Below are positions 10,692-60,435 of a DNA stretch of 64,000 bases, piece after piece; position 1 is the first letter of the stretch, and each line of letters starts with the position of its first letter. Origin of the DNA: an uncultured Acidobacteriota bacterium. GTDB taxonomy: Bacteria > Acidobacteriota > Vicinamibacteria > Vicinamibacterales > 2-12-FULL-66-21. The notes beneath the pieces are model-generated. The model saw only the letters and a program-made list of their open reading frames with translations. It made no database searches and was not told the origin of the DNA. The DNA lies in assembly GCA_963740275.1 (NCBI GenBank), contig CAVUDT010000004.1, positions 638,247 to 702,246 of the forward strand, written 5' to 3'. Made by a program: the position numbers and the translations under genes.

Positions 10692-11409
10692 TTACTTCTC
10701 CTTCGCCGCGAACGCTCGGCTCCGCTCGAGCAGCTCCCGAACTTCGTCGTCGGTCGTCTGCGAAAAGTCTCGATACCAGAGGCCGACCGCGGAGAACAGC
10801 GCCGGCGTGCGGGCGCAGACGACTTCGTCGCTCAACGCCGCCAGCGCAAGGCAGGTATCGGGCGCACCCACCGGGACAGCGACAACGACGCGCGACGGGG
10901 CGTGGGCGCGGACCGCCTGGACCGCAGCCTTCATCGTGGAGCCGGTGGCCAGGCCGTCATCGACGAGGATCGCGATCATCCCCTGGAGCGCTGCGGGGAC
11001 GCGGCCCTGGCGATACTCCCGTTCGCGGCGATCGAGTTCGGTTTGCTCGCGGCCGTGCGACTTCGTCTATCGACTGCGGGTCGATGCCGTACCAGCTGAC
11101 CACTTCGTCGTTCAGGACGCGTACTCCTCCGGACGCGATGGCCCCCATCGCCAATTCCGGCTGCGAGGGGACGCCGAGCTTGCGCACGAGGAAAATGTCG
11201 AGGAGAACGCCGAGCGCGGTGGCAATCTCGAAGGCGACGGGGACGCCGCCGCGCGGCAGCGCCAGCACCACCACGTCATCGCGGTTCGCGTACGCGCCAA
11301 GGCGGCTGGCGAGGTCGGCGCCGGCTGCCCGCCGATCGTCATACGGCTGAAGTGTCTCTGGATGCGGCCGCACGGGTGACCTCAGAGCTGGCCCGGTCGA
11401 GAACTGCAA
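10692..11409 (-). pseudogene. Phosphoribosyltransferase, frame disrupted as sequenced
   Basis: Two ORFs (10957..11409 and 10692..10979) together give one PRTase. N-terminal part: VVVLALPRGGVPVAFEIA. C-terminal part: MIAILVDDGLATGSTMKAAV (PRPP loop). Shifting frame near 11045-11058 restores REQTELDRREREYRQGRVPAALQG between them, consistent with a 1-nt insertion. Confidence 0.75.
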
Positions 11410-11452
11410 GCCCGGTACCGCGGGGACGCCGGCAGACGGAATCGAGCCGCGT

Positions 11453-13745: not shown

Positions 13746-15041
13746 ATGCCCCTCTTGCCAGCCCGGATGAACTTGCGGCTCGGACGCGTCGTGGCGTGTC
13801 TGCTGATTGCCGTGGCGTCCGCCACGGTGGCGGCCCAGGACCGCCGTCCACCGGATCCTGCCGTCCTGGGTGTCGATGCGGCAACCGACGCGTATCTGGC
13901 GACGGTTCCCGCGGAGGCCAGGGCGCGCTCCGACTCGTATTTCGAAGGGGGCTACTGGCTCAGCCTGTGGCAGTTCCTGTTGTCGTCACTGGTGCTGATT
14001 CTGATGCTCCACACCGGGATCTCGGCGCGTATCGGCGAGACGGCGAAACGCCTGACCCGTCACAGGTGGTTGCACCCGGCCATCTATTGGGTCGCTTTCC
14101 TGGTGATTACCGCGGCTCTCGAGTTCCCGATGACCGTCTATGCCGGCTTCTGGCGCGAGCACCAGTACGCGCTTGCGACCCAGACCTTCGGAGGATGGAT
14201 GGGTGATCAGCTGAAGGGCTTCGGGCTCGGCCTGGTGCTGGGGGCCATCCTCACTGCCGGCCTCTACGCCGTCGTACGCAGGATGCCCCGAACCTGGTGG
14301 CTCTGGGGTTCGGTCGTCATGATCGCCGCCATCGCGTTTATCGCCACCCTCGGGCCGGTCTTTATCGCCCCACTGTTCAACACCTACAAGCCGCTCGAAA
14401 GCGCGTCGATCCGTGAACCGATCCTGCGCCTGGCGCACGCCAACGGCATCGCGGCTGATGAGGTCTGGGAAATGGACGCGTCACGACAAACGACCCGGAT
14501 CAGCGCCAACGTGAGCGGCATGTTCGGCACCGATCGGATCACGCTCAACGACAATCTGTTGAAGCGGGCATCACCCGCGGCCGTAGAGGCGGTCATGGGG
14601 CACGAGATGGGGCATTACGTGCTCAATCACGTCTACGAAATGATCGTCAACTTCGCGGTGATCATCGCGGCCGGTTTCGGGCTCACCGGATGGGCGTTCG
14701 AGCGGCTCGCGGCCCGCTATCGCGATCGGTGGCGGATCGCCGGCATCGCCGACCCGGCCGGCCTGCCGCTGGTGGTGCTGATCCTCGGCGCCTACCTGTT
14801 CGTGCTGACGCCGGTGCAGAACACGATCATCAGGACCAACGAGTACGAGGCCGATATCTTCGGCCTCAACGCCGCCCGCCAGCCCGACGGCTTCGCCGAA
14901 GCGGCCCTGCTGCTCGGGGACTACCGCAAGCTCGATCCGGGGCCGCTCGAAGAGATGATCTTCTTCGATCATCCGAGCGGCCGCACCCGCATTCGCGCCG
15001 CCATGCAGTGGAAGGCGAATCAGGCCCCCCCGGACCGTTGA
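13746..15041 (+). CDS. M48-family (Ste24/HtpX-like) membrane zinc metalloprotease
   Basis: Frame of ORF 13446..15041, start at ATG 13746 (or 13767). Several TM segments. HEMGHYVLNH (HExxH) and a downstream NEYEADIFG glutamate. Confidence 0.8.
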   Translation: MPLLPARMNLRLGRVVACLLIAVASATVAAQDRRPPDPAVLGVDAATDAYLATVPAEARARSDSYFEGGYWLSLWQFLLSSLVLILMLHTGISARIGETAKRLTRHRWLHPAIYWVAFLVITAALEFPMTVYAGFWREHQYALATQTFGGWMGDQLKGFGLGLVLGAILTAGLYAVVRRMPRTWWLWGSVVMIAAIAFIATLGPVFIAPLFNTYKPLESASIREPILRLAHANGIAADEVWEMDASRQTTRISANVSGMFGTDRITLNDNLLKRASPAAVEAVMGHEMGHYVLNHVYEMIVNFAVIIAAGFGLTGWAFERLAARYRDRWRIAGIADPAGLPLVVLILGAYLFVLTPVQNTIIRTNEYEADIFGLNAARQPDGFAEAALLLGDYRKLDPGPLEEMIFFDHPSGRTRIRAAMQWKANQAPPDR

Positions 15042-15945: not shown

Positions 15946-17331
15946 CTACTCAGCAAAGCACGCAATGCCCTTCTTCCAACCCATACTCGCCAGGCGATTG
16001 AACTCCGCAACCCGATCTTTCGGGTCTATCTGGCTGCTGCCCGTTCTCGGGATATGGTCCTCCCGGCCATCGACATAACCCAGCGCCGAGACGCGCGCCG
16101 CGACTTCACGATCGAGTTGCGGTCGTGGTCTCGACGAACCGTCCAGCCGTTCGTCGAAGTCGCGCAGACGGTCGAGCATGGCGGCCCCGATCGCCTGGTG
16201 CTGGTGAAGCACATCGCGTTGCTCGCGCGGATCGCTGATCAGGTCGTAGAGTTCCGGACGTGGAGCCTCAATCACTTTGTAGCGATCGTCGCGCAGCGAG
16301 CGCAGCCGTGCCCACCCGAATCGCTCTGGATACAACGACTCAGCGTAGACATCGAGTCGGGGATCAGGTCCGCTGCCGGTGGCGAGAGGCACCAGGCTGA
16401 CGCCGTCCACACCGGTGGTGGGCAAACCGAAGAGCTCCAGAATGGTCGGCATCACGTCCACCACGCGGGTGATGGCATGGATCCGACCCGGAGGAATCCG
16501 CGGGCCACGCATGACGAACGGCACATGCAACGCCTCATCGTAGAGGAACAGCCCGTGCGATTCCTCCCCATGGTCTCCCAGTGACTCACCATGATCACCG
16601 ACGACCACCACCAACGTACTTTCCAGCTGGTTGCGGGTCTCGAGAGTCTCGATGACGCGCAACATCTGCGCATCCTGGAACGCAATCGCTGCGAGATAAG
16701 GGTCGGCATAGCGTCGCAGGTAATCGTCTGGCAGATCGTAGGGCCGGTGCGCGTCATACAGGTGAATCCATACAAAGAACGGTGACGCGTCTCGGCCTCC
16801 GAGCCACGCCACCGCACCGTCCACGACCTCATTTGCGCGCCGGCGCGCGCGAGCTCGTCCCTCGCATGGGGCCCTGGAACCCTCGTCGTACACCGCGAAC
16901 CCTTGTTCGAGGCCTCGGCCCTTTGCCAGCACCCCCGAGGCCACGAAGGCCGCTGTCGCAAGTCCGCGCTCGGTCAGGACCTCGGCCAGCGTCTGGAAAC
17001 CGGCTGCGAGGGGCGTGCCGCCGTTATCTCGAACCCCAAGCCGTGGGGGATAGAGCCCGGTGAAGAGCGTTGCGTGCGAGGGGAGTGTGAGCGGAACCGC
17101 CGCGAACGTTTGCTCGAAGACTGCCCCCTCGGCCGCGAGCCGATCGAGCGCGTTCGTTTCGACGCCGGCGAATCCATAGGGGGGCAGCCGATCGGCCCGG
17201 ATGGTATCGAGGGTGATCACCAGCAGATTACGTGGACGCGGTGCCGGATCGTGCGCTGGTCCCCGCAACGACGGAATCACCATGGTTGCTGCGACCGCGA
17301 CGAGAGTCAGGAGACGGCGGCGAAGACGCAT
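15946..17331 (-). CDS. Sulfatase-like hydrolase/transferase (alkaline-phosphatase superfamily), secreted
   Basis: 461-aa ORF. NLLVITLDTIRADRL metal site. The nucleophile motif reads TLPSHATLFTG (Thr and His where formylglycine sulfatases have CxPSR). GDHGESLGDHGE. Confidence 0.8.
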   Translation of the reverse strand: MRLRRRLLTLVAVAATMVIPSLRGPAHDPAPRPRNLLVITLDTIRADRLPPYGFAGVETNALDRLAAEGAVFEQTFAAVPLTLPSHATLFTGLYPPRLGVRDNGGTPLAAGFQTLAEVLTERGLATAAFVASGVLAKGRGLEQGFAVYDEGSRAPCEGRARARRRANEVVDGAVAWLGGRDASPFFVWIHLYDAHRPYDLPDDYLRRYADPYLAAIAFQDAQMLRVIETLETRNQLESTLVVVVGDHGESLGDHGEESHGLFLYDEALHVPFVMRGPRIPPGRIHAITRVVDVMPTILELFGLPTTGVDGVSLVPLATGSGPDPRLDVYAESLYPERFGWARLRSLRDDRYKVIEAPRPELYDLISDPREQRDVLHQHQAIGAAMLDRLRDFDERLDGSSRPRPQLDREVAARVSALGYVDGREDHIPRTGSSQIDPKDRVAEFNRLASMGWKKGIACFAE

Positions 17332-17340: not shown

Positions 17341-18459
17341 CTATCGCCGCTGCATGTCGAACCCGTGGCCGTCTGCCGAGCAGAGGGCGGCGTAGTCTGG
17401 CTCGAAAGGATAGTCGTAGCCGTCGACCACGTTGATTGCGCCGGTGAGCCGACCGGAGATCCCGGACTGCGTGCCCTGCGCAGTCACGATCCCGCTTATG
17501 AGCAACGTGCGGGCTTCGCTCAACCGCTCGGCGAGATCGTGCCCCACAAAGTAGTAGTAGGGATCGTTGAACATGTCGATGTCCCCGACGATGGCGAACT
17601 GGACCAGGCCGGTTGCATCGACAAAGCCCGAGAACCTGTTGCCGCGATCGCCCGTCGAGATGAACTCAGCGCCGGTCAGCGTCACACTTAGACGGAAGCC
17701 GTCTTGTGAGACCGTCGCTACGTAGCCACGATTTCTCGCGGCGGCAGGCAGCGTCTGTCCGTAGCGACAAGGCGCCGCCGTAATGGTGAGCGCATACGTC
17801 CCTGAAAAATCCACCACCGGCTGTTCCGGAACCAACTCGAGGTCGAAGGTCCGGTCCTCAGCGACATCGAGGGCCTCGATCCTGTTGGCATAGCCTTCTT
17901 TCTGTGCATGGAGCCGGATCGGTCCGCTGACACCGTACAGCGCGTAGCTTCCGTCTGGACTGGTGACCGCGGTGAGGCCGGATCCAACTCCGGCTATCAC
18001 CGTCACAGCAACGTCGCGAAGCGCGATCCCGTTGACCGAAAACCGGCCCGTGAGCCGGTGCGTCCCTGCTGGCAGAACCATCATCTGCGCCGCCCGGCTC
18101 CACGACTGGTATCTGGCGATAACGTCAGCCTCACCGACCGCGAGACCTCGGGCGACGCCCGCTGCGCTGATCTCGAGCACGCGATCGTTCGAGGTGCGCC
18201 ACACGGCCGTCGCGGTAACGTCCTCGACCGAGCCGTCGTTCCGGACCGCAGTCATCGTGAGCTGGGTCGATTCGCCTGGGGCGATCATCGAGGGCCCGCC
18301 AAGTTCGACACGCACGACAGCTGGCGCCTGGGGCACGGGCGGAGGACTGGTCACCGGGGGACTGGTCACCGGGGGACTGGGGACGGTCGGGCTCTTGTCG
18401 CAGGCCGCAAGTGCGCCGGCCAGTATTGTCAGCGCCAGGGCTTGCGTGATGCGCCGCAT
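17341..18459 (-). CDS. Lipoprotein with Big_2-like and CarboxypepD_reg-like domains
   Basis: Frame of ORF 17341..18516, start at ATG 18459 (MRRITQALALTILAGALAAC lipobox). SPPVTSPPVTSPPP linker. Ig-like segment APGESTQLTMTAV...VTATAVWRTSN. 9 nt upstream of the sulfatase-like gene. Confidence 0.6.
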   Translation of the reverse strand: MRRITQALALTILAGALAACDKSPTVPSPPVTSPPVTSPPPVPQAPAVVRVELGGPSMIAPGESTQLTMTAVRNDGSVEDVTATAVWRTSNDRVLEISAAGVARGLAVGEADVIARYQSWSRAAQMMVLPAGTHRLTGRFSVNGIALRDVAVTVIAGVGSGLTAVTSPDGSYALYGVSGPIRLHAQKEGYANRIEALDVAEDRTFDLELVPEQPVVDFSGTYALTITAAPCRYGQTLPAAARNRGYVATVSQDGFRLSVTLTGAEFISTGDRGNRFSGFVDATGLVQFAIVGDIDMFNDPYYYFVGHDLAERLSEARTLLISGIVTAQGTQSGISGRLTGAINVVDGYDYPFEPDYAALCSADGHGFDMQRR

Positions 18460-18714
18460 CCCGCGCCTTGGAAACACGGTCCGTGCTTGTCGTCTTTTCG
18501 CCATGGTGCTCCTCACTTACTAAAGCGGAAAGGAGCGACAAAAAGTCGGGCGTCGGGAGAGAGCGGCCGGACGTCAGGTGAGGCGCCTCAACCGTGAGAC
18601 ACGGAACTCTTCATTCTTTCAGGCGGTAACCGCGGTCATCCTGTCCAAACATCTGGAAGGGCTCCGGAAGGCTTAGAATGCCGGGGACGCGCGCCTGCGG
18701 CACGGCGACTGCCC

Positions 18715-21661
18715 ATGACAAATGAACGCTGGATGCGGACCGAGGAGCTGTATCACGCGGCGCTCGCCCTGCCGGTGGCCGAGCGTGACGCGTTTCTGGC
18801 CAAGGCTTGTCGAGACGACAACGCGCTACAACATGACGTTGCATCGCTTTTAAAGGAGGCGGTCGAGGATGCCTTCCTCGCCCGGTCGCCGATCGTTACT
18901 CCCGCGCATCTGCTTGCCGATCTTGCACCCGGTGAGATGACCGGCCGCAGGCTCGGGACGTATCGCCTCGGAGCCCTCCTCGGTGCCGGCGGCATGGGCG
19001 ATGTCTATCGAGCTCGTGACACGACGCTGGAGCGCGACGTCGCAATCAAGATTCTGCCCCGCGCCTTCACCAGCAACCCGAATCGGCTCGCACGCTTCGA
19101 GCGCGAAGCTCGCCTGCTCGCGGCGATGAATCATCCGCACATCTGCGCCATTCATGGGATCGAAGAGGTGGAGGGCCTCCGGTTCCTGGTGCTGGAGCTG
19201 GTGGAGGGCAGGACGCTCGCCGAGACGCTCGCGGAAGTCCCTCGACGATCGAGCGAAAGCGCCGGCCTGCCGCTTGAAGACGGACTGCGCATTGCCCAGG
19301 AGGTCGCGAACGCGCTGGAGGCGGCGCACGAGAAGGGGATCATCCATCGCGACCTGAAGCCCGCGAACATCATGATCACGGCGGCCGGCGCGGTAAAGGT
19401 TCTGGATTTCGGGCTCGCGAAGTCCGTCGCCAGCGAAGGGAAGACCGGAGCGTCTAGAGACGGCAGGATTTCCGGCGGCACGGCGCTCGGCGCCGTGATG
19501 GGCACGGACGCCTATATGAGCCCCGAGCAGGCATCCGGCAAGCCGGTCGACCGGCGTACGGACATCTGGGCGTTCGGCGTCGTCTTGTTCGAGATGGTCA
19601 CCGGCCAGCGGCCGTTCGTCGGCGAGACCGTCACCGAGACGCTCGCGGCAGTGCTGAAAACGGAGCCGGACTGGGCCTCGCTCCCGTCCACCGTTCCTCC
19701 CGAACTCCAGCGACTCCTTCGCCTGTGCCTCCAGAAAGACCCGAAGCGCCGGCTCCAGTGGATCGGTGACGCCAGGGTCACGATCGAGGATCTCCTGAGT
19801 GGCGTCGCGCTTGAGCCGGTCGCGGCGACGCATCCGGTCGACCGTCGCGGAGGCCGAGTGGCGTGGATCGTGGCTGGTGCGCTCGCGGCAGCCCTTGCCG
19901 GCACCGTCGCCTGGAACCTCAAGCACCAGGAGTTGCCCGTCACACGACTGGGTCTGACACTTCCCACCGGTCAGCGGCTCGATGGAAGCGGCGGCGGGCA
20001 CATTCTCGCGCTCTCTCCGAACGGGGCCCGGATCGTGTTCGTCGCACTGCCCCTTGCCCTCTACTTGAGACCGATGGGAACGGACGAGATCACGACAATC
20101 CGTGGCACCGAAGGACTTCGGACCCTGAGAGAGCCGGTCTTCTCGCCAGATGGCGGCTCGCATCGCGTTCTACGCAGACCAGACCCTGAAGAGGATTCCG
20201 GTCGAAGGGGGCGTGCCGGTGACGATTTGCCCGGCCAAGACCCCGTTCGGGATGAGCTGGGGACCCGACGGTATCGTGTTCGGCCAGGGCGCTGAAGGCA
20301 TCATGCGAGTGTCGCTCGACGGCGGCGCACCGGTCCGGATCGTCAGCGTCCAAGTCAATGAAGCCGCCCACGGGCCGCAGGTTCTGCCCGGCGGGCAGCA
20401 GGTGCTCTTTACCCTGGCGACCGGCACCGCGGCCGATCGGTGGGACAAAGCTCGAATCGTGGTGCAGTCGCTGATATCCGGGGAAAGGACCACCATCATA
20501 GAAGATGGCAGCGACGCTCGCTATGTCCCCAGCGGTCACATCGTGTACGCCGTCGGCGGAAGGCTGTTCGCCGTCGCATTCGATCAGCGCGGAGTGAGGG
20601 TCACAGGGGATCCCGTATCGATCGTTGAAGGCGTCAGGCGATCGGCGGCGAATTACACCGGCGCCGTCAACGCCAGCATCTCGAACAACGGTTCACTCAC
20701 TTACGTCCCAGGTCCGCTCACGCCGGCCGATGCCTTGATGAACGTCGCCATGGTCGATCGAAGAACCGGCAAGGTAGACGTGCTGGATCATCTTCCACCC
20801 GGCCGGTATGCGTCGCCGCGCGTGTCGCCGGACGGAAAACGGCTGGCTTTCACCACCGAGGACGGCAGGGAGGCCGCCGTCTGGACCTATGAACTCTCCG
20901 GGACCATGCCGCCGCAGCGGGTCACCTTCGGCGGAAACAACCGGTTTCCAGTGTGGACATCGTCCAACCGCCTTGCGTTTCAGTCGGATCGCGCCGGCGA
21001 CCTCGCGATTTTTCAGCAATCCGTCGGCGGGAGCGCGCAACGCGTGACCACGCCGGACCAGCAGACAACGCACGCCCCGGAGTCGTGGTCAGAGAAGACC
21101 GGCACCTTGTTGTTCAGTGTCGCCAAGGGATCTGATTTGTCGCTGTGGACGCTCTCGCTGCTTGATGGGAAGAGGTCGCTGTTCACCGTCATCACTCCGT
21201 CGTCGGCCTCCTATGCCACCGGTGCGGTCTTCTCACCTGACGGTCGATGGGTGGCCTACGCCAATGCGATCCGGAGCGCGACGACGATCTACGTCCAGCC
21301 ATTCCCGCCCGATGGTGACCGGAAGTATCAGCTCGGTCGGAAAGGGGCCGACGCGCCGCACGAACCGGTCTGGTCCCGGGATGGCAGAGAAATCTTCTAC
21401 AACCCGAGGCTCGGCGGCTTCGAGGCCGTCAGCGTGACGACGCAGCCCACATTCGCCTTCGGGACTCCCGTCCCGCTGGCGAGAACGTTCCTGATGGGCC
21501 CTCCAGGCGCTCGAACCAACTACGACATCACCGCGAACGGGCAGTTCGTCGGTCTGATTACAGCGGGAGGCACGCAGTACGACACCGGATCCGACGATAG
21601 GATCGAGGTGGTGCTGCACTGGCTCGAGGACGTCAAGGCGCGGACCCGGGCCGCGAGATGA
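18715..21661 (+). pseudogene. Ser/Thr protein kinase with TM segment and TolB-type beta-propeller, frame disrupted as sequenced
   Basis: ORFs 18715..20295 and 20150..21661. Kinase motifs [29 protein letters not shown]. Propeller repeats SPDGKRLAF, SPDGRWVAY. Removing one nt in gatggcggctcg (20149-20160) gives continuous ...PVFSPDGARIAFYADQTLKRIP. Confidence 0.85.
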
Positions 21662-24566
21662 CTCGCTCCCTGAAACTATCGCTCTGTCTCATGCTGCTGA
21701 TGTGCGGACGGGCAGGGGCCATGGCCCAGATGTCCGACGGATCGATCCGAGGAGAGATCCGCGATGTGCATGGCGTTCCGCTTGCGGGTGTGAGGGTGAC
21801 CGCTACCAGCGCCGACGTTCCCTTGCCGCTTGTCGTCATCACCGGGGCAGAGGGCGCCTATCGCCTGTCGAACCTCATTCCCGGACGCTACGCGCTGACC
21901 GCCGAGATCAGCGGTTTTACCGGGCAGGTGCGTGAGAATGTCGTCGTTCACGCCGGCCTGAACCTGACTATTCACTTCGTCCTGGCCGTCGGAGCCGTGC
22001 GGGAGACGATTACCGTCAAAGCTGAGACGCCGCTGCTCGAGACGTCGAGCGCGGGCCAGGCCGTGAATGTCAGCGGCGAGCTCCAGCGGTCCCTGCCGCT
22101 GGCCGCGCGGAAGCACTGGTCGGAGGTTTTGCGGCTGGTACCCGGAGTTGTCTCGACCGACACCACCGCCGACCAGGCGTCGGTGTTCTTCGTCCATGGC
22201 GCTGGAGTGGTGTCGGGATCGACGATCGTCGATGGCGCCGACATCAGTTCTGCGGTCAATCCGTGGACCGGGTATCTGGCGTTTCCCGAGGACGCCGTGG
22301 CCGACGTACAGATCCGGACGAGCGGGCTGGATGCGTCCGCCCCACTGGGGATGGGGGCCGCGGCCAACGTTGTCATCAAGTCCGGCACCAATCGATACCA
22401 GGGAAGCGGCACCTGGGCATACACCCCGAGGCGGTGGGTCAGCGACAACACACCTGCTGCGGCACGAGCCAGACGATGACGGTCAACCAACCGGAGGTGG
22501 CGCTCGGCGGACCGTTGCGGCAGGATCGGGCGTGGTTCTACGGAGCGTATCGCCGGCGGGTCGGGACCCTTGGTTTGAGTCGTCCGGCGGATCAGATTGC
22601 CGACATGAAGGCGCTCGTCCCCGGCTTCGAGCCGTTCGACAACGGGATCAGCGCGAACATCGTCCTGGCCAAGATCACGGGACAGATCCGGCCGACGCAA
22701 CAGCTCTCGGGTTTCTACAATTACGACGCCACGACGAACGAGAAAGATACCGCCTTCAACACCAGCAAGTTCACCGAGGTCGTCACCGGGGGACATGCCA
22801 TCTCGATGCGCCTGTCTTCGGCCTGGTCGAACTGGTTGGCGAGCCGGCTGACGGTCTCCTGGAACGACAAGGGGAGCATCCGATCGTTGGTGCGCGGGCA
22901 GGCTTCAGAGCCGTCCCGGCCTGTTTACCTCAGGGTGTTCCCCTCGGCCGGAACGTTGGTGGGCGGCACGCAGCGAGCCACGCTCGACAACTCGGCCAGC
23001 GAGACCCAATCTCCTTATACCAAGTGGACCATCGCCGGAGACGCCACGATCTACCGCACCGGGTGGCTCGGAACGCACGACGTGCAGGTGGGCGTATCGC
23101 TCCAGCCGAGCATCCATCGGCAAGACTCCATCGTCTACGCCAACGGCGGGTTCGCGCTGGAGGATCTCGTGCTTCTGGATGCGGCGAACGCGTCAGCCGG
23201 GACCAGGCCGTTCCACCGCCGGTTCTATGACTCGTCCGGCGGAGTCCTGGCGGACGGGCACATCTCTGACAATGCCGTCTATCTGCAGGACCTCTGGCGT
23301 CCCACATCGGGGGTCACGATCAGTCTTGGGCTCCGCCTCGATCAGATCCGGCGCACCGACGACCTGGCCGGGGAGCAGTTGCAGAACAGCCTCGAGTTCG
23401 GGCCGCGGCTCGGTGTGAACTACGTGCTGACGTCGGATCAGCTCAACTCCGTGCGCGCGTCCTTCATGCGGCTGCACGATCCACCCACCGTCAATCACCT
23501 GTCGGCCAGCGGTGCGGGTAGTCAGGGCGTGGGCGCCCAGACAGTCGGGTTCGACGACATGTATGACACGGATGCGGACGGCATCTTCGACAAGATGCTC
23601 TCCACTCCCGCGGCTTCGGCGAACAACCCGAACCGGATCATGGACTCGCGTTATCACCAGCCATACGTCAACGAGTGGGCGGCAGGGTACCGTCGTCAGC
23701 TCCCGCGCCAGAGCAGCGTGGATGTCGGCTTCATCCATCGCGACTTCCGGGACCGGACGGCACTGGTCGAGCGGAACGCGATCTATGACGGGAAAATGTT
23801 CGTGGGACTCCGGAACGAGAACCAGAACGAGATTTTTCTGGTGACCAACAACCGGTGGAATTGGCCGGTCTACAGCGCGCTGGAAGTCATCGCCACCAAG
23901 CGGACCGCTCGAGCCCAGTTTCTGGCGAGCTACACCCGGGCCTGGTCACGCCTCGACGGCACGTGGCAGCCGAACGACCCCGCCGCATTCATCCAGCCCG
24001 ACGCATTCGCTTTCGGCAGAGGGCTTCCAGTCAATGACAACCGGAACGCAACGCTGAACAATGCGTATGGCGACGGCAGTACGGGCCTGTGGTCCGGACC
24101 TGAGTGGATGGACCATGTCGTCAATCTCTCGGGTGTCTATCGCGCGCCATGGGACATCGTCGTCGCCTCCACCTACACGCTCCTGAAGGGGTGGTGGTCA
24201 GGCCCGATCGTGGCGCGCCTCCCGGCCGCGGATCCGCAATTCGGCCCGCCCACCGTCACGTTGTCGAACGGAAGGGAGGTACCGAACCCGCTCGCGACGA
24301 CGACGCGTTTCGCCTTTGACACCAGGAGCGAGGGACAGTTTGCGCTGCCGGCGCGACACTATGTGAATCTGCGAGTCGGACGCGTATTCCGCCTGCACGC
24401 CGGCATCCGGCTCGAGTTGGACCTGGACATTTTCAATGTGCCGAATCTTGCAGGTTTCCAGGGATTCCTGCCGGGCGCACATCAGCAATTCAGCACGAAC
24501 TTCGGCAAAGGGGGCAACGTGCAACCACCGCGCACCGTGCAGTTGGGTATCCGGTTCACATTCTAG
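21658..24566 (+). pseudogene. Oar-like TonB-dependent receptor family OMP (CarboxypepD_reg N-terminal domain), frame disrupted as sequenced
   Basis: ORFs 21658..22479 and 22263..24566. Signal peptide, then GSIRGEIRDVHGVPLAGVRVTAT...YRLSNLIPGRYAL. Ends GIRFTF. The frames join near 22450-22465 (consistent with a 1-nt deletion). ATGA overlap with the kinase stop at 21658-21661. Confidence 0.8.
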
Positions 24567-25873: not shown

Positions 25874-25950
<77 letters not shown>

Positions 25951-45313: not shown

Positions 45314-45349
45314 CGGCAGGCGCGTCACGAAGAGGCTACACTTCCACCC

Positions 45350-47744: not shown

Positions 47745-47748
47745 CCTC

Positions 47749-48651
47749 TCAGCGGGGTCGCGCCGGGAGGTTCCTGGCGTGGTAAACGTCGGCCGGTATC
47801 CGGTGGCCCATGTAGACGCGGCCCAGCAGGTCGAACAGCGTCGGGTCGTACGCCTTGAGGTCATCGGGCGTCTGAAGCCGCTTCGTCCCGTCAACCCACT
47901 CGTAGTTGGACCAGAACCACCACTGCGTGCCTTCCGCCCAGTATTCGTTGGCCGTCGTCTCCGCGTAGTGACCCTTGTACTGCCCGCGGGCCATCGCCGC
48001 CTTGTAGGCGGCCTGGATCTCTTCGTACAGCGGCGGGTCGGCCGTGCGGATCGCGTTCATGATGCCGTGGGACCACTCGTGCACCAGGATGTTCTCGCCG
48101 TAGTAGCGGGTGCCCGGATATCCGAGCACGTTCTCCTCGGCGCCGGTCGTGTAAACACCTCCGAGGCCACGCGCGCGGCGGTTCCAGTATTCCTGGTCGG
48201 TCAGGCTGGCGATGCCGCCCGGCTTGTCGTAGTTCTCGCGCTCGCGTCGCGTCAAGCGCGGATCGTCGAGCGCCGGCTTCTTTCGATTGCGTTGTTCGGG
48301 GATGTCGGTCGTCATCTCGGTGACCGCCATGATGCCGACCCGGAACTTCCTGGTGATCATCTCGCGGCGGATGTCAGGCCGGTTGCCGAGCATGAAGACG
48401 ACGATGTCGCGGGCCACGAGCAGCGCGGCGTCGGGGACCTTGTCGGAGCTGATGACCGGGATTCCGTGCGCATCGACATACTTCTTGTAGAAGGCGGGAT
48501 CGTACCCGAAGGCGGCCGGCACAGCGCCGACGGTGAATCTGCCGTAATCCTCGACGATGGGTTTCGCCGGGGGCTGCGGCGCCTGTTCCTGCGCCGTCGG
48601 CGCCAGGGTCCAGAACACGACGGCGGCTGCGATCAAGCCTGCGTTTTTCAT
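47749..48651 (-). CDS. Secreted HExxH metallopeptidase-like protein (possibly ATLF-like gluzincin)
   Basis: Frame of ORF 47749..48807, start at ATG 48651 (MKNAGLIAAAVVFWTLAPTAQ; AAGGAAGG upstream). LVHEWSHGI followed by TANEYWAEG, reminiscent of the HExxH...EFFAE arrangement of lethal-factor-like domains. This is my inference only. Confidence 0.55.
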   Translation of the reverse strand: MKNAGLIAAAVVFWTLAPTAQEQAPQPPAKPIVEDYGRFTVGAVPAAFGYDPAFYKKYVDAHGIPVISSDKVPDAALLVARDIVVFMLGNRPDIRREMITRKFRVGIMAVTEMTTDIPEQRNRKKPALDDPRLTRRERENYDKPGGIASLTDQEYWNRRARGLGGVYTTGAEENVLGYPGTRYYGENILVHEWSHGIMNAIRTADPPLYEEIQAAYKAAMARGQYKGHYAETTANEYWAEGTQWWFWSNYEWVDGTKRLQTPDDLKAYDPTLFDLLGRVYMGHRIPADVYHARNLPARPR

Positions 48652-48827
48652 CGAACCTTCCTTGCCATGCGCTCCGCGCGTGAGCGTAGCGGCACGGCCG
48701 GGCTCGCGCAAGAAGGACTTTCTTATGGCGGCATCAGGTCTTTTTTGACGAGTTTTCGGGCGTCGGTGTGCACGGCCGGCCCGCCTCATGGTCCGTGGAC
48801 ACACCATGCGAGGCTTGACCAGCCGTT

Positions 48828-48947
48828 TTAGCGCGTGTAGTACAAGACGACTGCGACGAGCGTCCCGGCAAACAGGACAAGCGTCAGACGTCTCGCTCGC
48901 GGATCGACGTCGTGTAGTTCAAATCTCACGTCCGTGGGCTTCGACAT
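48828..48947 (-). CDS. Possible 39-aa small membrane protein
   Basis: Below the ORF-track size cutoff. Minus-strand ATG (48947) preceded by GGAGGGAG. MSKPTDVRFELHDVDPRARRLTLVLFAGTLVAVVLYYTR, with one C-terminal TM helix. Confidence 0.3.
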   Translation of the reverse strand: MSKPTDVRFELHDVDPRARRLTLVLFAGTLVAVVLYYTR

Positions 48948-49033
48948 GCTCAGCTCCCTCCGACTCCGCTAGTAGGTGGGGTCTTCCGGCGGGGCAGGGC
49001 CCGACATCATAACAGGCCACCCAAGGACGCGGC

Positions 49034-49300
49034 TTACGCCTCGACCAGAATCACCAGTGTTTCGGGCACCACGCCATCATGGGCCATCGCCTCCGCAGCC
49101 GCCGGGCTCCGCATGACGGCGTTCAACGCATCCATGTCCGGCACATCCATCACCAAAGCCACTCTCTTCGGGTTCTGCGGATCCACGAACGTCCGGATGT
49201 TGGTGACGCCAAGCCGTCCAAACAGCTCCTTTCGCTTCGGCGAGCGCAGCCAATGATCCTGACCCTTTGTGATGTCGTGATATCCAACGATCGTCGGCAT
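49034..49300 (-). CDS. Small hypothetical protein (88 aa)
   Basis: Frame of ORF 49034..49330, start at ATG 49300 (MPTIVGYHDITKGQDHW...). No family confidently recognised. Lower GC by eye. Confidence 0.45.
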   Translation of the reverse strand: MPTIVGYHDITKGQDHWLRSPKRKELFGRLGVTNIRTFVDPQNPKRVALVMDVPDMDALNAVMRSPAAAEAMAHDGVVPETLVILVEA

Positions 49301-49745
49301 GTTGTCTCCTTTGTGAAGATGCCCCGGCATGCTACCACCGTGATGTGTGTGGGATGCAACAGGCTGGTGAGGGAGCGGGAGCGTAGCCCGAGGGGTGAGG
49401 GGTGGCTATGGCAATCCACGGCTCGGCGGTTCGTAGCCTGATCACATAGCAGCCGAACAGACCTCCATCGAATTCCAGATGACGACCAGCGGGGCCTCTC
49501 AGGTGCCGGAGTCACCCCAGATCCGCGATTAGGCAGATGGGGCCTGCCTGGTCGCGCAGTGTTTAGGCATCGACCAAAGGCCCGCGCCCGGAACGCGCCA
49601 ACGGGCTTTGTATAGGTCTAAGAACCCTTCTAAGAAACCAAACCCAACAGGTCCAGATCAGACCAGTCGTGCCCTCACGAACACGGTCGAAACACCCGCA
49701 TAAAACCTGGCGAAACCGCACGCTGTCGCATCAAGCGCAACGCCC

Positions 49746-50147: not shown

Positions 50148-50234
50148 GCGAAAGTGGCGGAACTGGCAGACGCACCAGCTTGAGGGGCTGGCGACCGCAA
50201 GGTCGTGGGGGTTCGAATCCCCCCTTTCGCACCA
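50148..50234 (+). tRNA. tRNA-Leu (anticodon GAG)
   Basis: gcgaaagtggcggaactggcagacgcaccagcttgaggggctggcgaccgcaaggtcgtgggggttcgaatcccccctttcgcacca. Long variable arm. Anticodon loop TTGAGGG. CCA is encoded. Confidence 0.95.
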
Positions 50235-51258: not shown

Positions 51259-53677
51259 TCAACAGTCCAGCGAGCTGATCGGACGGATCGATGCGGCGGT
51301 GCGGGCGGCACGAAACACCGCGGCGAAGCCGGCCGCCAGAAGGAGCGCGCATGCCGCCACGTGGGTCCAGGCGTCGAAGCTCCCGACGCCGAAGACCTGG
51401 TGACGCAGCACGCGTGACAGCGCCGCGGCGCCAATCAGGCCGGCGGCCGTACCGGCCAGAAGCACCAGGCTGCCGTCCCGCACGAACAACCGGATGATTG
51501 CCCGTTCCGGTGCGCCGAGCGCGAGACGGATCGCGATCTCCCGGTGCCGCTGCTGGACGGCATAAGCGGTCACACCGTAGATGCCGAGCATCGCCAGAAA
51601 GGACGCGATCACCGCGCAGCCGGTCAACAACAGCGACAGGAACCTGCTGCCGGCCCGTGCCTTGTCGTCGCCGGCCACCGACCGGGCAGGATTGACGACG
51701 GCGTCCCGGTCGACCTCGGCAGCCGCGCGTTGGAGCGACTCGAACAGCATCGGCGCCGGCCGGTCGGTGCGAACGTAGAAGGTCGCGAACCGTCCATCGG
51801 GAACCTTCGGCTTATAGAAATCCGCCTGGTCGCCATCGTCATAGGTTTGCCGCACGTCGCCGCTGATCCCGACGACGGTGCGCCACGGGCCGGCGGTCAC
51901 GCCGCCTGGGGTTTGCTCCATTTCGCGGACTCGTCCGCCAAGCGCGCCGCCGGCGGGCCACAGCCGTCCGGCGAGGGTCTCGCTGACGACCGCAACCGGA
52001 GCATCCGCCGCGGCCTCTCCGGCCGTGAACTCACGCCCCTGCCTCAGCTCGATGCCAAAGGTCGAAAAATAGCCTGCGCTCACCGAGACGACCCCGCCGG
52101 TGATCCCGGCCTCCCCTGGCTGCGCCTCGATCCTGTGAGCCGGCGGAGGCACGAACGGCGGCCAGCTGCTGAAGACCACCGGCATGCTGGTATCCGCCGA
52201 CACCCTTGAGGCAAATCGTTCGAAGACCGGCCGGTAGGCGCCGCCATCGGCAGGATCGCGCGGCCGCAGCGCGATCCGAGAGGTGATCAGGCCGTCGGGA
52301 TTGAATCCGAGCTCGGTGGTCATCATCCGGCCGACGCTGCGGATCATCAATCCGCAGCCGACGAGCAGCACCAGCGATCCGGCCACCTCGAACGCGATCA
52401 GACCGCTGCGAAGCCGGCGCATCAGCCGGCCCTGGGTTGCCACCCGTCCGTCCTGCCGCAGCGCGTTGGTCAGCCCGCGTCCCCAGGAGGTCAGCGGCGC
52501 CAGCGCCAGCGAGATCGTGGCGACGAGACTCACGCCGACAACGACCAGCAGCACGGTAGTGTCGAGGGCGATCCCCGAGGCGCCGGGTGCCGGACGGCCA
52601 AGCTGGGCCTCGATCATCGGCGCCAGTGTGTCGAGAACGAGCGCGGTGATACCGGTACCCGCGACCAGCGCGGCGGCAGCAATCAAGGACGACTCGGCCA
52701 GGAGCATCCGGACGATGTGGCGCCAGCCGGAGCCGAGCGCCAGCCGGACCGCCACCTCCCGCTGCCGCTGCAGCGAGCGCAGCAGCATCAGCACCGCGAC
52801 ATTCGCGCACACGATCACCAGCACGAGACTCACCGCCACGGTGACGCCGAACAGGACCGGCCGCAACTGCCCCACCCATCGCTCGTGAGCGGACTCCAGA
52901 TGAACGCCGGTCCAGTCATCCGGCAGCGGGGACGTCGCCGCCCGGCGCGCGGCTTCCGTAAGCCGCTGCTCGGCGGCCGCGGGAGGCACACCGTCACGCA
53001 GCCGCACCAGATACGCGCGGACCGGCGTGGCCTGTGGGACCATGAGGTCGACCGGGGTCCGGCTTTCACGACCGAAGTAGAAGCCGGATGGCAGTACGCC
53101 GACGATCCGGAACGTCTCGAACGTGCCGGGACGGGACTCCGGTTCCGTCCGGATCGTTCGTCCGACGATGCCGGGATCGGATCCAAACCGCTCGCGCCAC
53201 AGCGCGTGGCCGATGAGCGCGACTCGTTCGGATCCGGGAGCGAAATCCTGCTCCGTGAAACGGCGACCGATCGCCGCAGTGACGCCGAGCCCCTCGGCGA
53301 ATCCCTGCATCACTCTCAACCCGCGCAGCGACACGGCGTAACCGCCGTCATCGAGGTAGAACGACTCACCGGCGCTGGCGATCGGGAAACTCGACGACGT
53401 CGCGCACCGACGGCCAGTCCATTCCCGTCATGCCGCGAGGCTCCCACGGGCCTGGCGGCGCATAGCGGACGTGATACAGCCGGTCCGCTTCCGGGTAGGG
53501 CAAAGACCGCACCAGATACGCATTCACCACCGACACCATCGTCGTCGTGAGCGCCAGGCCGAGGGCGAGCGAGGCGATGGCGACGATGGTGAACGACGGC
53601 GTGCGGCGAAGCCCGCGGACGGCGAACCGGAGGTCTCGCACCAGGCCGTTATCGATGGTCCAGCTGTGTTTGGTCAC
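51259..53677 (-). pseudogene. ADOP-family permease, frame disrupted as sequenced
   Basis: ORFs 53366..53677 (VRDLRFAVRGLRRTPSFTIVAIASLALGLALTT) and 51259..53334. A frame shift at cccGatc (complement of about 53380-53387) restores ...VVEFPIASAGESFYLDDGGYAVSLRGLRVMQGF. Confidence 0.85.
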
Positions 53678-53723: not shown

Positions 53724-54575
53724 ATGCGCCGCACGCCGGAGATCCCCGAAGACATCGAAGAGTACCGCGACGAACGCTGGCGTCGCGAGGGCACGCGGCA
53801 GGTGGAAACCGCCATCGAAGCCGAGCGTTTCGTCGAGCAGATCGGCTTCGCCGCCTGCCTGACCGACTCGCGCCGGCCGGGCCCGTCGCTCTACGTCGCG
53901 GTCTGCGGCCGCCGCGACGCGGTGATGCCGCGCAACGTGCAGAAGGATCCCGAAGCCTCGCTGACCTGGGTCCTGAAAGACGAGATCGTCGGGCGCGGCA
54001 AGGTCTACTATGCGAAGCTGCCGCGGGGGAAGGCGATGTTCATCGCGGCGCGGATGATCCCGTATTTTCACGCGATCTGGGGGATCCGCCGGTCGGAGGA
54101 AAAGGGACGCCTCAGCCGGAACGCACAGGCGATCCTGCGGGTGCTGCGGCGGGAATGGGAGATGAGCACCTGGGATCTGCGCGAGGATTCCGGGATCAAG
54201 GACCGCAAGGCGTTCACCGCCGCCCTCGACGAGCTGCAGGCGGCGATGATCGTGGTGCCGAGCCAGGTGTTCTATCAGCCGAAGTTCACCTACATCTGGA
54301 CGCTCGGGGTCGGCCGGTTTCCCGAGGCGCTGCGCAAGCGGATCGCCCGCGAGACCGGGCTGCGCGAGATCGCCCGCTGCTTTCTGGCCGGCGCCGGGCT
54401 GACCGTCCCCGGCGAGCTGGCCCGCGTGACCGGGCTGTCGCGGCCCGAGGCCGGACGCGGCAACCGGGCGCTGGTGTCGGAAGGCTACGCCAGCATGCCT
54501 GCTCCAGGCACCTATCGTCTCGCGGCAGACTGGCCGCGCGAGGATCCGGTGGCGTCAGTCCTCCCTGAGGAGTGA
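53724..54575 (+). CDS. Hypothetical protein, possible winged-helix domain
   Basis: 283-aa ORF. No firm family assignment. [24 protein letters not shown] looks HTH-like. The 3' end overlaps the convergent permease gene by about 21 nt. Confidence 0.45.
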
Positions 54576-57251
54576 AACCGGGTCGACGCGCATCGCCTGG
54601 ACCGCGGGCCGCCACGACGCGGCGATCACAGTGAGGGCCAGCGCCCCCGAGATGGCGGCCAGCGACTGCGGGTCTGCCGGCGACACCTCGTAGGTGAGCG
54701 CCGCAAGGCCGCGTCCGAGCATCCAGGCGCCGACCAGCCCCACCGCGAGTCCCATCGCCGCCAGCTTGACCGCGTCTGCCGCCACCAGCCGCGCCAGCTT
54801 TGAGGGGTCGATGCCAAGCGCAACCCGGATGCCGAACTCACGCCGGCGCCGTGCGACCGCCGCGCTGAGTACACCGAACAGTCCACCGGCGGCGGCCAGC
54901 AAGGCGACCAGGCCGAAGACCAGGCCAAGAGCCGCTGCGGCGCGGGGACGAGTGAGCGTCTCGGCGTATTCGGCGTCCATCGACCCGAGCGACGCGATCA
55001 CCACCTGCGGGCTCACCGATCGAATCGCCGCCGCGATCGCGGGGATCCCCGGGCACGTCTGGCCGCAGCGCAGAGCGAGGAAGACCTGTCCCGAGCCGAA
55101 GGTCGATGCCTCGGCGCTGCCGTTGCGTTCCACGACGAGCGGGTGATACATCTCCGCCACATCCTGACGGGGATCGAGAAGCGGGTTGCGGATCTCGGTC
55201 GCCACACCGACTACGCGATACCAGGATTTCTGGCTTTCGAGGCGGAAGGAGCGGCCGACCGCCTGCCCGTCGGGCCACAGAAGGCGGGCGAGGCGCTGGC
55301 CGACGATCACATCCTCTGGTGCCGAGACTGCGGAGAAGGGACGGCCGGCCAGCAGCTTGATGTCGAACAGCTCGAAGAACTGCGCGCTGACGCTGTAGGT
55401 CATGATCTCGCCGGGCTTGATCGGGGCGGCGCCCTCCGTGTCGGGCTGCAGGCTGCCGAAATAGATGCCGCCGCGGGTCGGCGGCACACCGCCGCTCAGG
55501 CTGGCCATCTGGACGCCCGGCAGCGCTCGCAGTCGCGTCTCGAGCGCGCTGGCAAAGGCGAGGCGGCTGGCGCGGTCGCGGAACGTGAATTCCGGCAGCG
55601 CGACCCATCCGGTGATCACGCCGTCCGAGTTCAGCCCGCGATCGGCATTCGTCAGGTTGACGAACGTCCGCACCAGCAGCCCGGCTCCAGCCAGCAGCGT
55701 CGTCGCCAGCGCGACCTCGGCGACGAGCAGGCCGCGCGCCAGCCGGCGCCGAGCCGGGACCTCGGTACCGCTGCGGCCGGCCAGCCGGATCGAAGCGATC
55801 GCGTCACCTTCGTCGCCATCCATGCCGGCACCACGCCGGCGATGGCCGCGGCCAGGATGCCGAGCGCGGAGGTGACCGCTACCGCGCGCCAGCTGAGCGC
55901 AACCGGGGTCAGCGTGCGGGTGAGAAACGCGTCGGGGAGATAATTGGTGACGAGCTCGACCAGGGCGTGCGCGAGCAGCAGCCCGGCGATCGAAGCCGCC
56001 AGGCCGAGCAGCAGCGTTTCCGCCAGCGCCTCCCGCACCAGGCGGGCGCGCGACGCGCCGAGGGCAGAGCACATCCCGAACTCACGCTGCCGCTCCGAGA
56101 ACCGGGTGAGCATCAGGTTCATCGCATTGGCGCACAGGACCAGGAACACCAGGCCGACGCCGGCCGAAAGCGTCATGATCGAACGGCGCGAGTACTTGTC
56201 GACCATGCCGGCGGCAATCGGCCTGAACATCAGCGAGGTGCCGTCCGGCAGCGCCGAGGCGCTGCGCGCCGCGCTCTCGGCGGCCCGGAGCGAGTCCGGT
56301 GGCGGAATGCCGGCCGCAAGACGGGCGAAGGCCATGGGGCGGACACGCTGCAGGTCGGGCGGCGGCGCGGTGAAGTCAATCGGACGCCAGGCGCGGACAT
56401 TCGCATACGGGAAGCGGAACGAGGCCGGCAGCACGCCGATGACCTCCGTCGAGACGCCGGAGACGCGGATCCTTCGGCCAATCACGCCAGGATCGCGGTT
56501 GAACAGCGTCTGCCACAGTTCCTCCGACAGCAGGATGCGATCGTCGGCGCCGGCGCGGCCCTCACCCTCGAGGAAGCCGCGGCCGATGATCGGCTGGACG
56601 CCGAGCATCGCCAGCATCCCCGGCGTGATGCGCGCGCCTCCCCTGGTCACCAGTTCCTGCCCGGTGTCGAGTGTCACCGGAGACTGTGCCGCTCCCTCGA
56701 TCCCCTCGAAGACGCGGCTGTCGCGCCAGGCGCCGAGAAGCGTACCGGGGACGGTGGACATGAAACCTTCGCCGTTGGTCAGCACCACCGAGGTCAGGCG
56801 GGAGGCCTCGCGAAACGGCACCGGGTGCAGGACCAGCGCGTCGAGAACGGTGAACATCGCCGCGGTGACGCCGATGGCAACCGCTAGCATCCCGACGGTC
56901 AGGGCGAGGGTCGCCACACTGGAGCGCAGCCGCGAGGCGGCGCGGCGAAAGTCTTCGATGAACATCTGAGGTCCTCGTCGAAATCGGGCGGGGGCCGTGC
57001 GGAGTCCAGTCGGTAACCCGCGGGCCGGTCCCCAGCGCGTGACGGAGCGGCAGCCGGAGAAGGTCGAAGAGCTCGCCGGCCGCGGTCATTGCCAGCCCGG
57101 CCGGACCGCGGCGCTCCGCCTCGCGGCGGCAGGCCTCGCGCACCGAAGCCAGGATCTCCTCTTTCCCCGCCGGCGACAGGTGGGGAGCCGCGACCAGGAT
57201 GACCCGGCCGGCGCGCTCGATCCAGGCGAGCGCTCCCGAGTGACGGCTCAC
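54555..57251 (-). pseudogene. ADOP-family permease with N-terminal 'permease prefix'-like domain, frame disrupted as sequenced (probably twice)
   Basis: ORFs 55652..56965 and 54555..56072 join at acgaaggtgac (complement of about 55805-55815; adding one G gives ...PAWMATKGDAIASIRLAGRSGTE). A third frame starts at GTG 57251 (GTGA overlap with the PadR stop): MSRHSGALAWIERAGRVILVAAPHLSPAGKEEILASVREA... It has no stop before running into the permease frame, possibly through the G5 run at 56989-56993. Confidence 0.7.
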
Positions 57252-57662: not shown

Positions 57663-57725
57663 GGCAAGCCGTCAGCCTCGATCCGCGGCTGGTGTCAGCG
57701 AGAGTTGGCTCTGAGCGGTCGTTTC

Positions 57726-60435
57726 TTACTCGGTACGGAGGGCGACCATCGGATCGACTTTCGTCGCGCGGCGTGCGGGAAGGTAGCAGGCCGCCGCCGC
57801 AACACCGGCGAACGTCAGCGCGACGGCCACGAAGGTGGCGGTGTCGAGCGGCGTGACGCCGAACAGCATGCTCTGGAGAAACCCCGTCCCGGCGGCGGCC
57901 GCACCCAGGCCGAGCACGATTCCAACGCTGGTCAGGAGCAGTCCCTGGCGAAGCACCAGGGCAAGAACGTGCGAGCGCTGGGCCCCGAGCGCCATCCGGA
58001 TGCCGATCTCCTGCTTCCGCTGCGTCACGGCATACGCAAGGACGCCGTAGACGCCGATGATCGCCAGGAGCCCGGCGACGCCGGCGAACGCGCCGGCCAT
58101 CACCGCGTAGAAGCGGGGACGCGCGACCGAGCTGCTTACCAGCCGCTCCATCGAAAGCATCCCATCGACGCCGGTATTCGGATCAACGGCGCGGACGATC
58201 TGTCCAACCGCCGGGATCAGCGCGTTCGGATCGTTGCGGGTGCGGACGGCGAACGACAACAGCCCGAGGGAACGCTCGTGCTGCCAGAGCGGCGCTTCCC
58301 CCCATCGCTGCTGGAGCGCCAGCAATCGCCGATAGTGAATGAAGACTTCCGGGTACGGCTCGCGATCCGGTGAGGTGTTGCGCAGGTCTTCGACGACCCC
58401 GACCACCCGGAGCGGCGTCGGCGGGCCCTTGCCCATGTGCCAGTCGACAATGCGTCCGACCGGGCTGCCCGGCCCGAACTGGGGGACAACACTTCGGCTG
58501 ATCACGATCTCCGGCGTGGAGGAGTCGCCGCCGTCCGCTTCGAGCTCGCGTCCGTCGAGCACCCGCACGCCCATCGCCGTCAGATACCCGGGGCTGACCG
58601 GTCGAAGCGAGGGCCTGACCACGTACGACTCCATCTGATCCACCGTCCGGCCTTCGGGGACGAACGTACCCAGTGTGATCTGTTCCCGGATCAGCATCCC
58701 GGCCCTGGTGAAGCCAGCGGACCTGACGTCGGGCACGGCGCGCAGGCGGGCGAGCAGCGATTCGATCGTCTCGACTTTTCTGGCGATCGGATAGCTCGGG
58801 GGAAACACCAGCTGAAAGGCGAGCACGTTCGACGGGTCGTAACCCCGGTCGATCCCGGACAACGCCGCGAAGCTGCGGATGAGCAATGCGGCGCCGACGA
58901 GCAGCGCGGTCGCCATCACGAGCTGCCCGAGAACCAGGCCTGCCCGCAGCCGCGATGCGCCGCGGCTGGGGGTCGCGCCGCGCGGGCCCATCGCCTGAAA
59001 CCGGTTCGGGCGCGAGAGATGGAGCGCGGGGAGGAGGCCAAACACCAGGCTCGTCACGGCGGCGGCGCCGAACGCGATCCCGAGCACCCGCAGGTCGATC
59101 CCGATCTCATTGACTCGAGGCAGGATCGAAGCGCCGAAGGAAAGCTGGAAGATCCCCGGCGCGTCCACGGAGGCCAGCATCCTCACGAGCGTGATGCCGA
59201 GCGCCCCGACCAGCGCCCCGAGCGCGCCGCCGATCATCGCGAGCACCGCGCATTCGGTCAGGATCTGGCGGACCACCCGGCCGCGGCTGGCGCCGATCGC
59301 GCACCGCACGGCGATCTCACGCTGCCGGGCGCTGCCGCGCGCCAGCAGCAGGTTCGCGAGGTTGGCGCACACGATCACCAGGACGACCGAGACGGCCGCG
59401 AGGAACAGCTGCAGCGCGGGCCGCAGCTCCTTGACCGCGCGATCCTTGAGACGCTCCACTTCGAATCTCGGCGCCGTCCGCGGAGGAGTATTGGCCGGCG
59501 GCGGAGTCGGTGATCGCAGCGCCGATGACGTTTGCGTCCTGGAGGGCAGCTTCCAGCGTCACGTCCGGCCGGAGACGGCCGAGCAGTGTCACCCTGACCC
59601 GCGCCTTCGCGGCATCGTCGACGGCGAGGGGCGTGTAGAAGTCCCCTTCTGCGCCGGCCAGTTCGAACGTCGACGGCAGCACGCCGACGATCGTGAACAG
59701 CCGACGCTGCTGCCCGGATGACAGAAACTCGAGCGGTTTTCCGACGACGTCCCGATCGGCATGAAAGAGCTGCTGCCAGGCGTTGAAACCCAGCAGGACG
59801 ACGTTCGGGTCGCGGTCGTCGTCCGGCACGAATGTTCGCCCCAGCAGCGGCCGGGCGCCGAGCGTCGAGAACCAGCCGGCCGAGATATTCGCACCCCACA
59901 ACCGCGCCGTGCCGTCGGCGGTTCTCACCATGGCGATCGAAGGTGCGATCCCGCCCAGGTCGGAGAGGGTCGTGGTCCGCGCGCGCCATTCCAGGAACTC
60001 CTGGTAGGTCACGCCGCGCTGGAACGGCGGCAGCTTCGGCTCAGGGCGGGGAATGTTCTCGACGATCCGTACCAGGCGGTCGGCAGCGTCGAATGGAAGC
60101 GGCCGCAGCAGGACCGTGTCGACAACGCTGTATACGGCGGTGGTGGCGCCGATCCCGACGCCGAGCGTGAGAATCGCGACGAAGGCGAAGCCCGGCGAGC
60201 GCCGGAGCGTGCGCAGCGCGTAGCGAACGTCCTGACGGATCTCGTCGAGCCACGACCAGACCCAGACCGCGCGCGCGTTCTCGCTGACGATCGCCGGGTT
60301 GCCGAACGCGAGCAGCGCCTGACGGCGAGCCTCCTCAGGGGTCATGCCCCTGGCGATGTTCTCGTCGGTTTCGCGCTCGATGTGATCGCGGATGTCCTGG
60401 TCGAGGCCGTCCAGGGCTCGCCGGTCGCGTGCCAT
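57726..60435 (-). pseudogene. ADOP-family permease with N-terminal prefix domain, frame disrupted as sequenced
   Basis: ORFs 59317..60486 (start ATG 60435: MARDRRALDGLDQDIRDHIERETDENIARGMTPEEARRQALLAFGN...IRQDVRYALRTLRRSPGFAFVAILTLGVGIGA) and 57726..59459. Removing the A in gagAttc (complement of about 59473-59479) restores ...[24 protein letters not shown]. Confidence 0.85.

Follow-up and report, generated by a model that had tools for sequence, protein, structure and literature searches.

When ten genes on one bacterial contig are each found split between reading frames, is the organism losing these genes, does it read across the breaks, or is the sequence itself at fault? The question is raised by a stretch of 64,000 nucleotides (hereafter the window; positions 638,247 to 702,246 of contig CAVUDT010000004.1) from an uncultured bacterium of the Vicinamibacterales, in which phosphoglycerate kinase (pgk), tetraacyldisaccharide 4′-kinase (lpxK) and eight further genes, four of them ADOP duplicated permeases, are interrupted. 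An earlier note, made from the letters of this DNA, had preferred assembly indels to true pseudogenes. Here, we describe 11 one-base frame breaks in ten genes, one ADOP permease being broken twice, and we judge from sequence comparisons that they are very probably errors of consensus or assembly and not real gene loss. We favour this reading because all lesions are of plus or minus one base and a single edit restores a full-length open reading frame (ORF), because the repaired proteins match families, structures and orthologues in one stretch, because the breaks strike pgk and lpxK, both essential, while the neighbours in their block are intact, because relatives assembled from short reads are clean while a long-contig relative is broken elsewhere, and because there are no nonsense mutations, large deletions or signs of decay.

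Frame breaks and the genes they interrupt

Frame breaks were located with a codon model trained on the long ORFs of the window and decoded with a seven-state Viterbi path (six frames and a non-coding state) over the whole 64 kb. Same-strand switches of frame that lacked a gene boundary all fell on sites marked in the earlier note, and the path gave no further within-gene switch in 1-10.6 kb or in 60.5-64 kb. Eleven of the 12 events listed in that note were borne out, within a few bases of where it had placed them. The type of each junction was read from three-frame views and the bounds set by stop codons: nine carry an extra base and two lack one, an excess of insertions that is not significant (binomial p approximately 0.07). 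One edit per junction yields one long ORF for every gene, and nucleotide alignment to orthologous loci opens a gap of exactly one base at each of the kinase, receptor, lpxK and pgk sites described below. The rate is 11 per 64 kb, or about one per 5.8 kb (about 1.7 per 10 kb, roughly Q38), close to the previous estimate of one per 6 kb, and the breaks affect about ten of the approximately 51 genes counted in the window, about 20%. Nonsense codons, multi-base deletions, and insertion sequences or other mobile elements were absent from the ten broken genes. The coding signal persists in the new frame past every break and identity to orthologues is alike on either side, which upholds the earlier observation that the flanks remain protein-like.

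Two further candidates were rejected. The boundary of pdxA and the PSP1 gene (approximately 1312-1380) is an ordinary gene boundary, and the supposed in-frame stop between 15946-17331 and 17341-18516 separates two genes, each with its own signal peptide.

Four loci from relatives are used for comparison. L001 is a 47.8-kb short-read scaffold from the ENA, collinear with the window at 26.2-36.8 kb; L082 (ENA ERZ25039504, contig_4392) is a contig of 491,516 bp on which the kinase, the receptor and the ECF sigma factor of the window all have their counterparts; L083 is a Logan short-read contig of a relative, and L084 a JGI short-read contig of a relative.

The two genes whose loss would be hardest to survive lie in a conserved lipid A and glycolysis block, the other genes of which are intact and 67-87% identical to those of L001. 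The lpxK gene (31360-32344, minus strand; 327 aa when joined) carries an extra G at 31731-31739, which corresponds to the GG of CAGGAC on the coding strand and appears as a one-base gap in the nucleotide alignment. The intact LpxK of L001 (329 aa), used as a tblastn query, is split at 31739/31731, and the reconstruction scores 161 bits against TIGR00682 (cut-off 92). A run of seven G residues at 31711-31717 was considered as the site of the error and rejected, since the L001 alignment places the break at 31731-31739. In pgk (34832-35972, plus strand; 379 aa when joined) the extra G belongs to the GGG at 35009-35011, within CTCGGGCC, and again leaves a one-base gap against L001, whose phosphoglycerate kinase is intact at 380 aa. 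The best homologue of the reconstructed Pgk is 86% identical over the full length; among 8000 homologues, the nearest are proteins of Vicinamibacterales metagenome-assembled genomes (MAGs), with 86% the best identity.

Four more genes outside the ADOP family are broken once each. A type I phosphoribosyltransferase-like gene of the TT1426 family (10692-11409, minus strand) has one extra base at 11048-11058; after repair, its PF00156 match runs in one stretch across the junction, and residues 4-208 align with residues 3-203 of Thermus TT1426 (PDB 1wd5). A Ser/Thr protein kinase that ends in a PD40/TolB-like beta-propeller (18715-21661, plus strand; 981 aa when joined) is broken by a surplus C near position 20161, within a propeller repeat of the form FSPDG...IAFY; this leaves the Pkinase domain on the N-terminal fragment and PD40 on the C-terminal one. 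L082 is continuous over this site and the nucleotide alignment places the extra C at 20161, while residues 140-976 of the kinase in L083 lie in a single frame. The Oar-like receptor that follows (CarboxypepD_reg and an outer-membrane beta-barrel; 21658-24566, plus strand; 969 aa when joined) has lost a G at about 22456-22460, the deletion-type break that had been proposed. Here CarboxypepD_reg is on the N-terminal and the beta-barrel on the C-terminal fragment, and orthologues (P0242-P0247) are single proteins of 955-974 aa that cover 98-100% of the reconstruction; tblastn sets the junction between 22455 and 22458, and alignment to L082 puts the missing G near 22459. Last, a Tat-signal intradiol-dioxygenase-like gene (44704-45313, plus strand; 202 aa when joined) has an extra base at 44885-44891, in CCCCAT. 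Its junction falls at residue 62/63 and is spanned both by the PF00775 match (residues 57-170) and by the match to intradiol dioxygenase structures (PDB 4ilt and 4ilv), which begins at residue 53. The phosphoribosyltransferase, kinase, lpxK, pgk and dioxygenase-like sites of the earlier note thus each proved to be one extra base.

The remaining five breaks fall in ADOP permeases. ADOP1 (45350-47744, plus strand; 797 aa when joined) has an extra base at 46670-46680, and its reconstruction covers positions 1-802 of the 803-position TIGR03434 model in one stretch (709 bits). ADOP2 (51259-53677, minus strand; 805 aa when joined) has one base too many at 53382-53392, where the coding strand reads GAGTTTCCCG, and covers positions 1-800, likewise in one stretch (571 bits). 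ADOP4 (57726-60435, minus strand; 902 aa when joined), which carries permease prefix domain 1, has an extra base at 59465-59484 and covers positions 1-803 in one stretch (759 bits), with NF038403 matched at its N-terminus. ADOP3 (54555-57251, minus strand; 898 aa when joined) is the gene broken twice: a base is missing at 55802-55812, and there is an extra base at 56983-56993, in or adjoining a run of five G residues at 56990-56994. Its orthologues (P0121-P0124; 888-898 aa, 70-71% identical, with 100% coverage of the 898-aa reconstruction) align to the window in three segments (frames -3, -1 and -3) that meet at approximately 56983-56992 and at 55805, so that the second event, which the earlier note had called probable, is now established along with the four breaks that it had assigned to these permeases. 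The N-terminal extension of ADOP3 has no match in Pfam or NCBIfam, and its fusion to the permease is settled by the orthologues; the reconstruction covers positions 2-803 of TIGR03434 (570 bits). The curated cut-off of this model is 622.3 bits: ADOP1 and ADOP4 score above it, and ADOP2 and ADOP3 score below it yet cover the whole model. In sum, each reconstructed protein that was compared with orthologues or families, as had been advised, matched in one continuous stretch once repaired.

Sequence context and copies in relatives

If the breaks were made by slippage, they should favour homopolymers, the runs in which slippage and true spontaneous indels cluster. The breaks in the window show no enrichment of this kind. 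Runs of three or more bases overlap four of the 11 junctions, where 39% would be expected, and no frame break falls at any of the window's 17 runs of six or more bases. The longest homopolymers, the G7 in lpxK (31711-31717) and a C7 at 15025-15031, are both read in frame; the longest run at any break site is the G5 of ADOP3, and most are of two or three bases. This lack of association with runs weighs against real mutations of the slippage type, against phase variation and against transcriptional slippage. The 11 sites also lack a shared motif, a slippery heptamer and any A/T run, and neither a stop nor a hungry codon stands where the frame shifts; no consistent GATC or GANTC methylation motif was found when the same sites were judged by eye.

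In the short-read loci L001, L083 and L084, the lpxK, pgk, kinase and receptor genes lie in single frames: lpxK and pgk are intact in L001, and the kinase and the receptor each occupy one frame in L083 and L084. No within-gene frame switch was found in 21 kb of L001. L082 is continuous over the junctions of the window and is itself broken at other places. The reading frame of its kinase shifts near residue 327 (near residue 481 in the window), an in-frame stop codon stands in place of a conserved Tyr of its receptor (9923-9925), and four further breaks fall in two more genes, each of which is spread over three frames. Over 22 kb, L082 carries no fewer than five frameshifts, plus the one in-frame stop (6365-9290, 9923-9925 and 17449-18978). 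Across these few loci (L001, L083 and L084 against L082), breaks track the type of assembly rather than the lineage. The earlier note had advised looking for the same lesions in independent assemblies; the related L082, broken at other positions, favours error, and no assembly of the same species was found. L082 is, as an observation in its own right, another error-rich long-contig assembly in public collections.

Errors of consensus, recent pseudogenes or recoding

How might such breaks have arisen? The contig to which the window belongs is 963 kb long and comes from a Vicinamibacterales-like soil acidobacterium; it was most likely assembled from long reads. Residual one-base errors would then have remained in the consensus, nine as spurious extra bases and two as dropped ones, and each would shift the frame inside an otherwise intact gene, from which gene callers would output either two fragments or one shortened protein. 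The bases at the break sites would, on this account, differ from those in the organism's own DNA. Genes split by frameshifts are a known artefact of long-read consensus sequences, especially at low coverage, below approximately 40x (PMC9262707), many pseudogenes in databases are assembly artefacts (PMC11017572), and Nanopore-only catalogues of soil MAGs contain Mb-scale contigs that received one round of Medaka polishing (PMC12313526). The window resembles the indel artefacts of Nanopore and PacBio assemblies, the problem addressed by the IDEEL test, in its single-base indels and in the roughly 20% of its genes that are split or truncated, and also in the protein-like halves of those genes, in its very long contig and in its complex soil community (PMC9262707, PMC11017572). 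The likeness extends to the intact copies in short-read relatives and to a second long contig that is hit at different sites. One difference is that classic long-read errors are tied to homopolymers, whereas the breaks described here are not enriched in runs and nine of the 11 are insertions. A consensus with random errors, or one of low coverage, need not show the tie to homopolymers.

Several points weigh against consensus error. The missing link to homopolymers is atypical of classic Nanopore R9 errors, and the single clue to a long-read origin is the size of the 963-kb contig. No independent assembly of the same species was found, the best hits being 86% (Pgk), 71-78% (ADOP3) and 71% (receptor) identical; a gapped DNA pattern across the pgk site had no match among metagenome contigs. 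Every TIGR03434 ADOP of the window, four in all, is broken, while a fifth duplicated permease of the MacB/FtsX type, an ADOP-like protein of 821 aa at 36889-39354 that is matched by Pfam only and is not listed in the earlier note, is intact. Finally, six of the 11 events lie within 14.6 kb (44.9-59.5 kb), a mild clustering that a uniform error model does not predict. Of two further scans for relatives, one of metagenomes with the receptor protein gave no confirmed relative; in the other, of a genome collection, the Pgk patterns proved too conserved, and the matches listed came from distant phyla only.

The pattern of the ADOPs and the clustering speak for a mixed case, in which most breaks are errors of consensus and one or a few of those in the non-essential, highly paralogous genes (the ADOPs, the receptor, the kinase) reflect true pseudogenes of recent date, or variants of a strain that entered the consensus. 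Large paralogous families tolerate the loss of genes, every TIGR03434 ADOP is hit and one is hit twice, and the kinase and the receptor are broken in L082 too. Yet the ADOP lesions resemble those of pgk and lpxK, with one base each and no decay, and the ADOP reconstructions cover the whole 803-position model. Genes of ADOP size (2.4-2.9 kb) would mostly be hit by chance at about one error per 3-6 kb, and the lesions of L082 lie at other positions in an assembly that is visibly rich in errors. We regard the mixed case as unlikely, though it is the strongest of the alternatives to error throughout.

A second alternative takes every lesion to be real: a recent and rapid decay of the genome, with about 20% of genes frameshifted, pgk and lpxK among them. 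The lesions do stand in the deposited sequence, and recently host-restricted bacteria carry many pseudogenes with a single lesion each. Decaying genomes such as those of Mycobacterium leprae, Sodalis and recently host-restricted enterics also contain pairs of frameshifted ORFs from which known proteins can be rebuilt. The window is unlike them in having one-base lesions, one per gene (two in one), with no nonsense mutations, deletions or insertion elements, in that essential genes are hit, in that conservation is unchanged on both sides of the breaks, and in its free-living genomic style. Decay is expected to spare essential single-copy genes, and within the window it has not, as both pgk and lpxK are hit; they belong to glycolysis and lipid A synthesis, and every neighbour in their block is intact. 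Nor were the mixed spectrum of lesions and the relaxed conservation that decay predicts found. The lesions lie outside homopolymers, the relative on a long contig has different lesions and the short-read relatives have none, and a GC content of 67% with large paralogous families is typical of a free-living soil bacterium (GC is 64-71% across the window and 67% overall, and the window encodes ADOP permeases, Oar-like receptors and PD40-type kinases). We consider decay very improbable. It is just as hard to credit that the indels are truly in the DNA of a free-living soil population of Vicinamibacterales with about one-fifth of its genes frameshifted, pgk and lpxK included; to survive, such a population would have to rely on unrecognised recoding, on gene expression that tolerates errors or on its community.

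That the genes are expressed across the breaks by programmed ribosomal frameshifting or transcriptional slippage can be dismissed almost entirely: nothing beyond the frame breaks themselves speaks for it, and although the programmed frameshifting of prfB and dnaX and the poly-A slippage of endosymbionts likewise yield functional proteins from two frames, the shifts in the window are not conserved in orthologues, which are in frame at every tested site, they run in both the +1 and -1 directions, and they share no motif, slippery heptamer, stimulatory sequence or long run, of A/T or otherwise, over the 11 sites.

The reading of the breaks as errors of consensus, then, is the best supported, as in the earlier note, now by comparison with relatives and with the points on homopolymers and on the TAA codon treated below corrected. 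Its significance is as a warning about quality and not as biology, the artefact being of a known kind. For about one gene in five, annotation, metabolic reconstruction, estimates of completeness, pangenome counts and claims of gene loss drawn from this contig will be in error. That automated annotation would split or drop the broken genes had been foreseen, and two public proteins bear it out: P0048, a Pgk cut to 325 aa, and P0241, a receptor fragment of 696 aa, both 100% identical to the window and from a contig whose length is given as 963,390 bp. Users of the contig need first to polish it or to call its genes with a frameshift-aware method, and the same warning holds for similar long-contig MAGs, L082 for example.

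The ECF sigma gene and other features of the window

One listed event did not stand. An in-frame TAA (25175-25177) had been read as a lesion in the gene for an ECF sigma factor (TIGR02999; 24593-25165, minus strand). The codon is present, but it is no lesion, because the stop is shared with L082, which has TAG in the same position, and because the TIGR02999 match (219 bits, cut-off 126, model positions 3-182 of 183) begins downstream of it; the codon lies upstream of the likely start of the gene, an ATC at 25163-25165, and the gene is intact. Three loci were compared here: 24593-25195 of the window (minus strand), 12244-12830 of L082 and 5438-6019 of L083. In each, the conserved N-terminus opens at an Ile codon (ATC in the window, ATT in L082 and ATC in L083), and none of the three loci has an ATG, GTG or TTG ahead of it. 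The ATC of L083 is situated 8 nucleotides past the receptor stop, with a GAGGA motif before it. On this comparison, the ECF sigma gene probably uses a conserved non-canonical AUY start (ATC or ATT). Gene callers shorten all three genes to 149-165 aa. The probable ATC/ATT start, seen in three independent assemblies and missed by standard gene callers, is the sole by-product of biological interest.

The order of genes also differs from that of L001, in which secG follows tpiA directly; in the window the two are separated by about 13 kb (36765-49745). This segment holds the intact ADOP-like permease, a copper amine oxidase, an HlyD-like protein and an ECF sigma/FecR pair, together with the dioxygenase-like gene, ADOP1 and two unknown genes. 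Set against L001, the segment represents an insertion or a rearrangement.

Between holB and the PBP1A gene, the intergenic region at 3298-3935 contains two tandem arrays and has no coding signal. The first (3298-3431) consists of about six units of 19 nucleotides; the second (3470-3935) consists of about four units of approximately 120 nucleotides that are 60-99% identical. Three tRNA genes, Asp-GTC (25874-25950), Val-TAC (26089-26161) and Leu-GAG (50148-50234), are all intact according to ARAGORN and Rfam.

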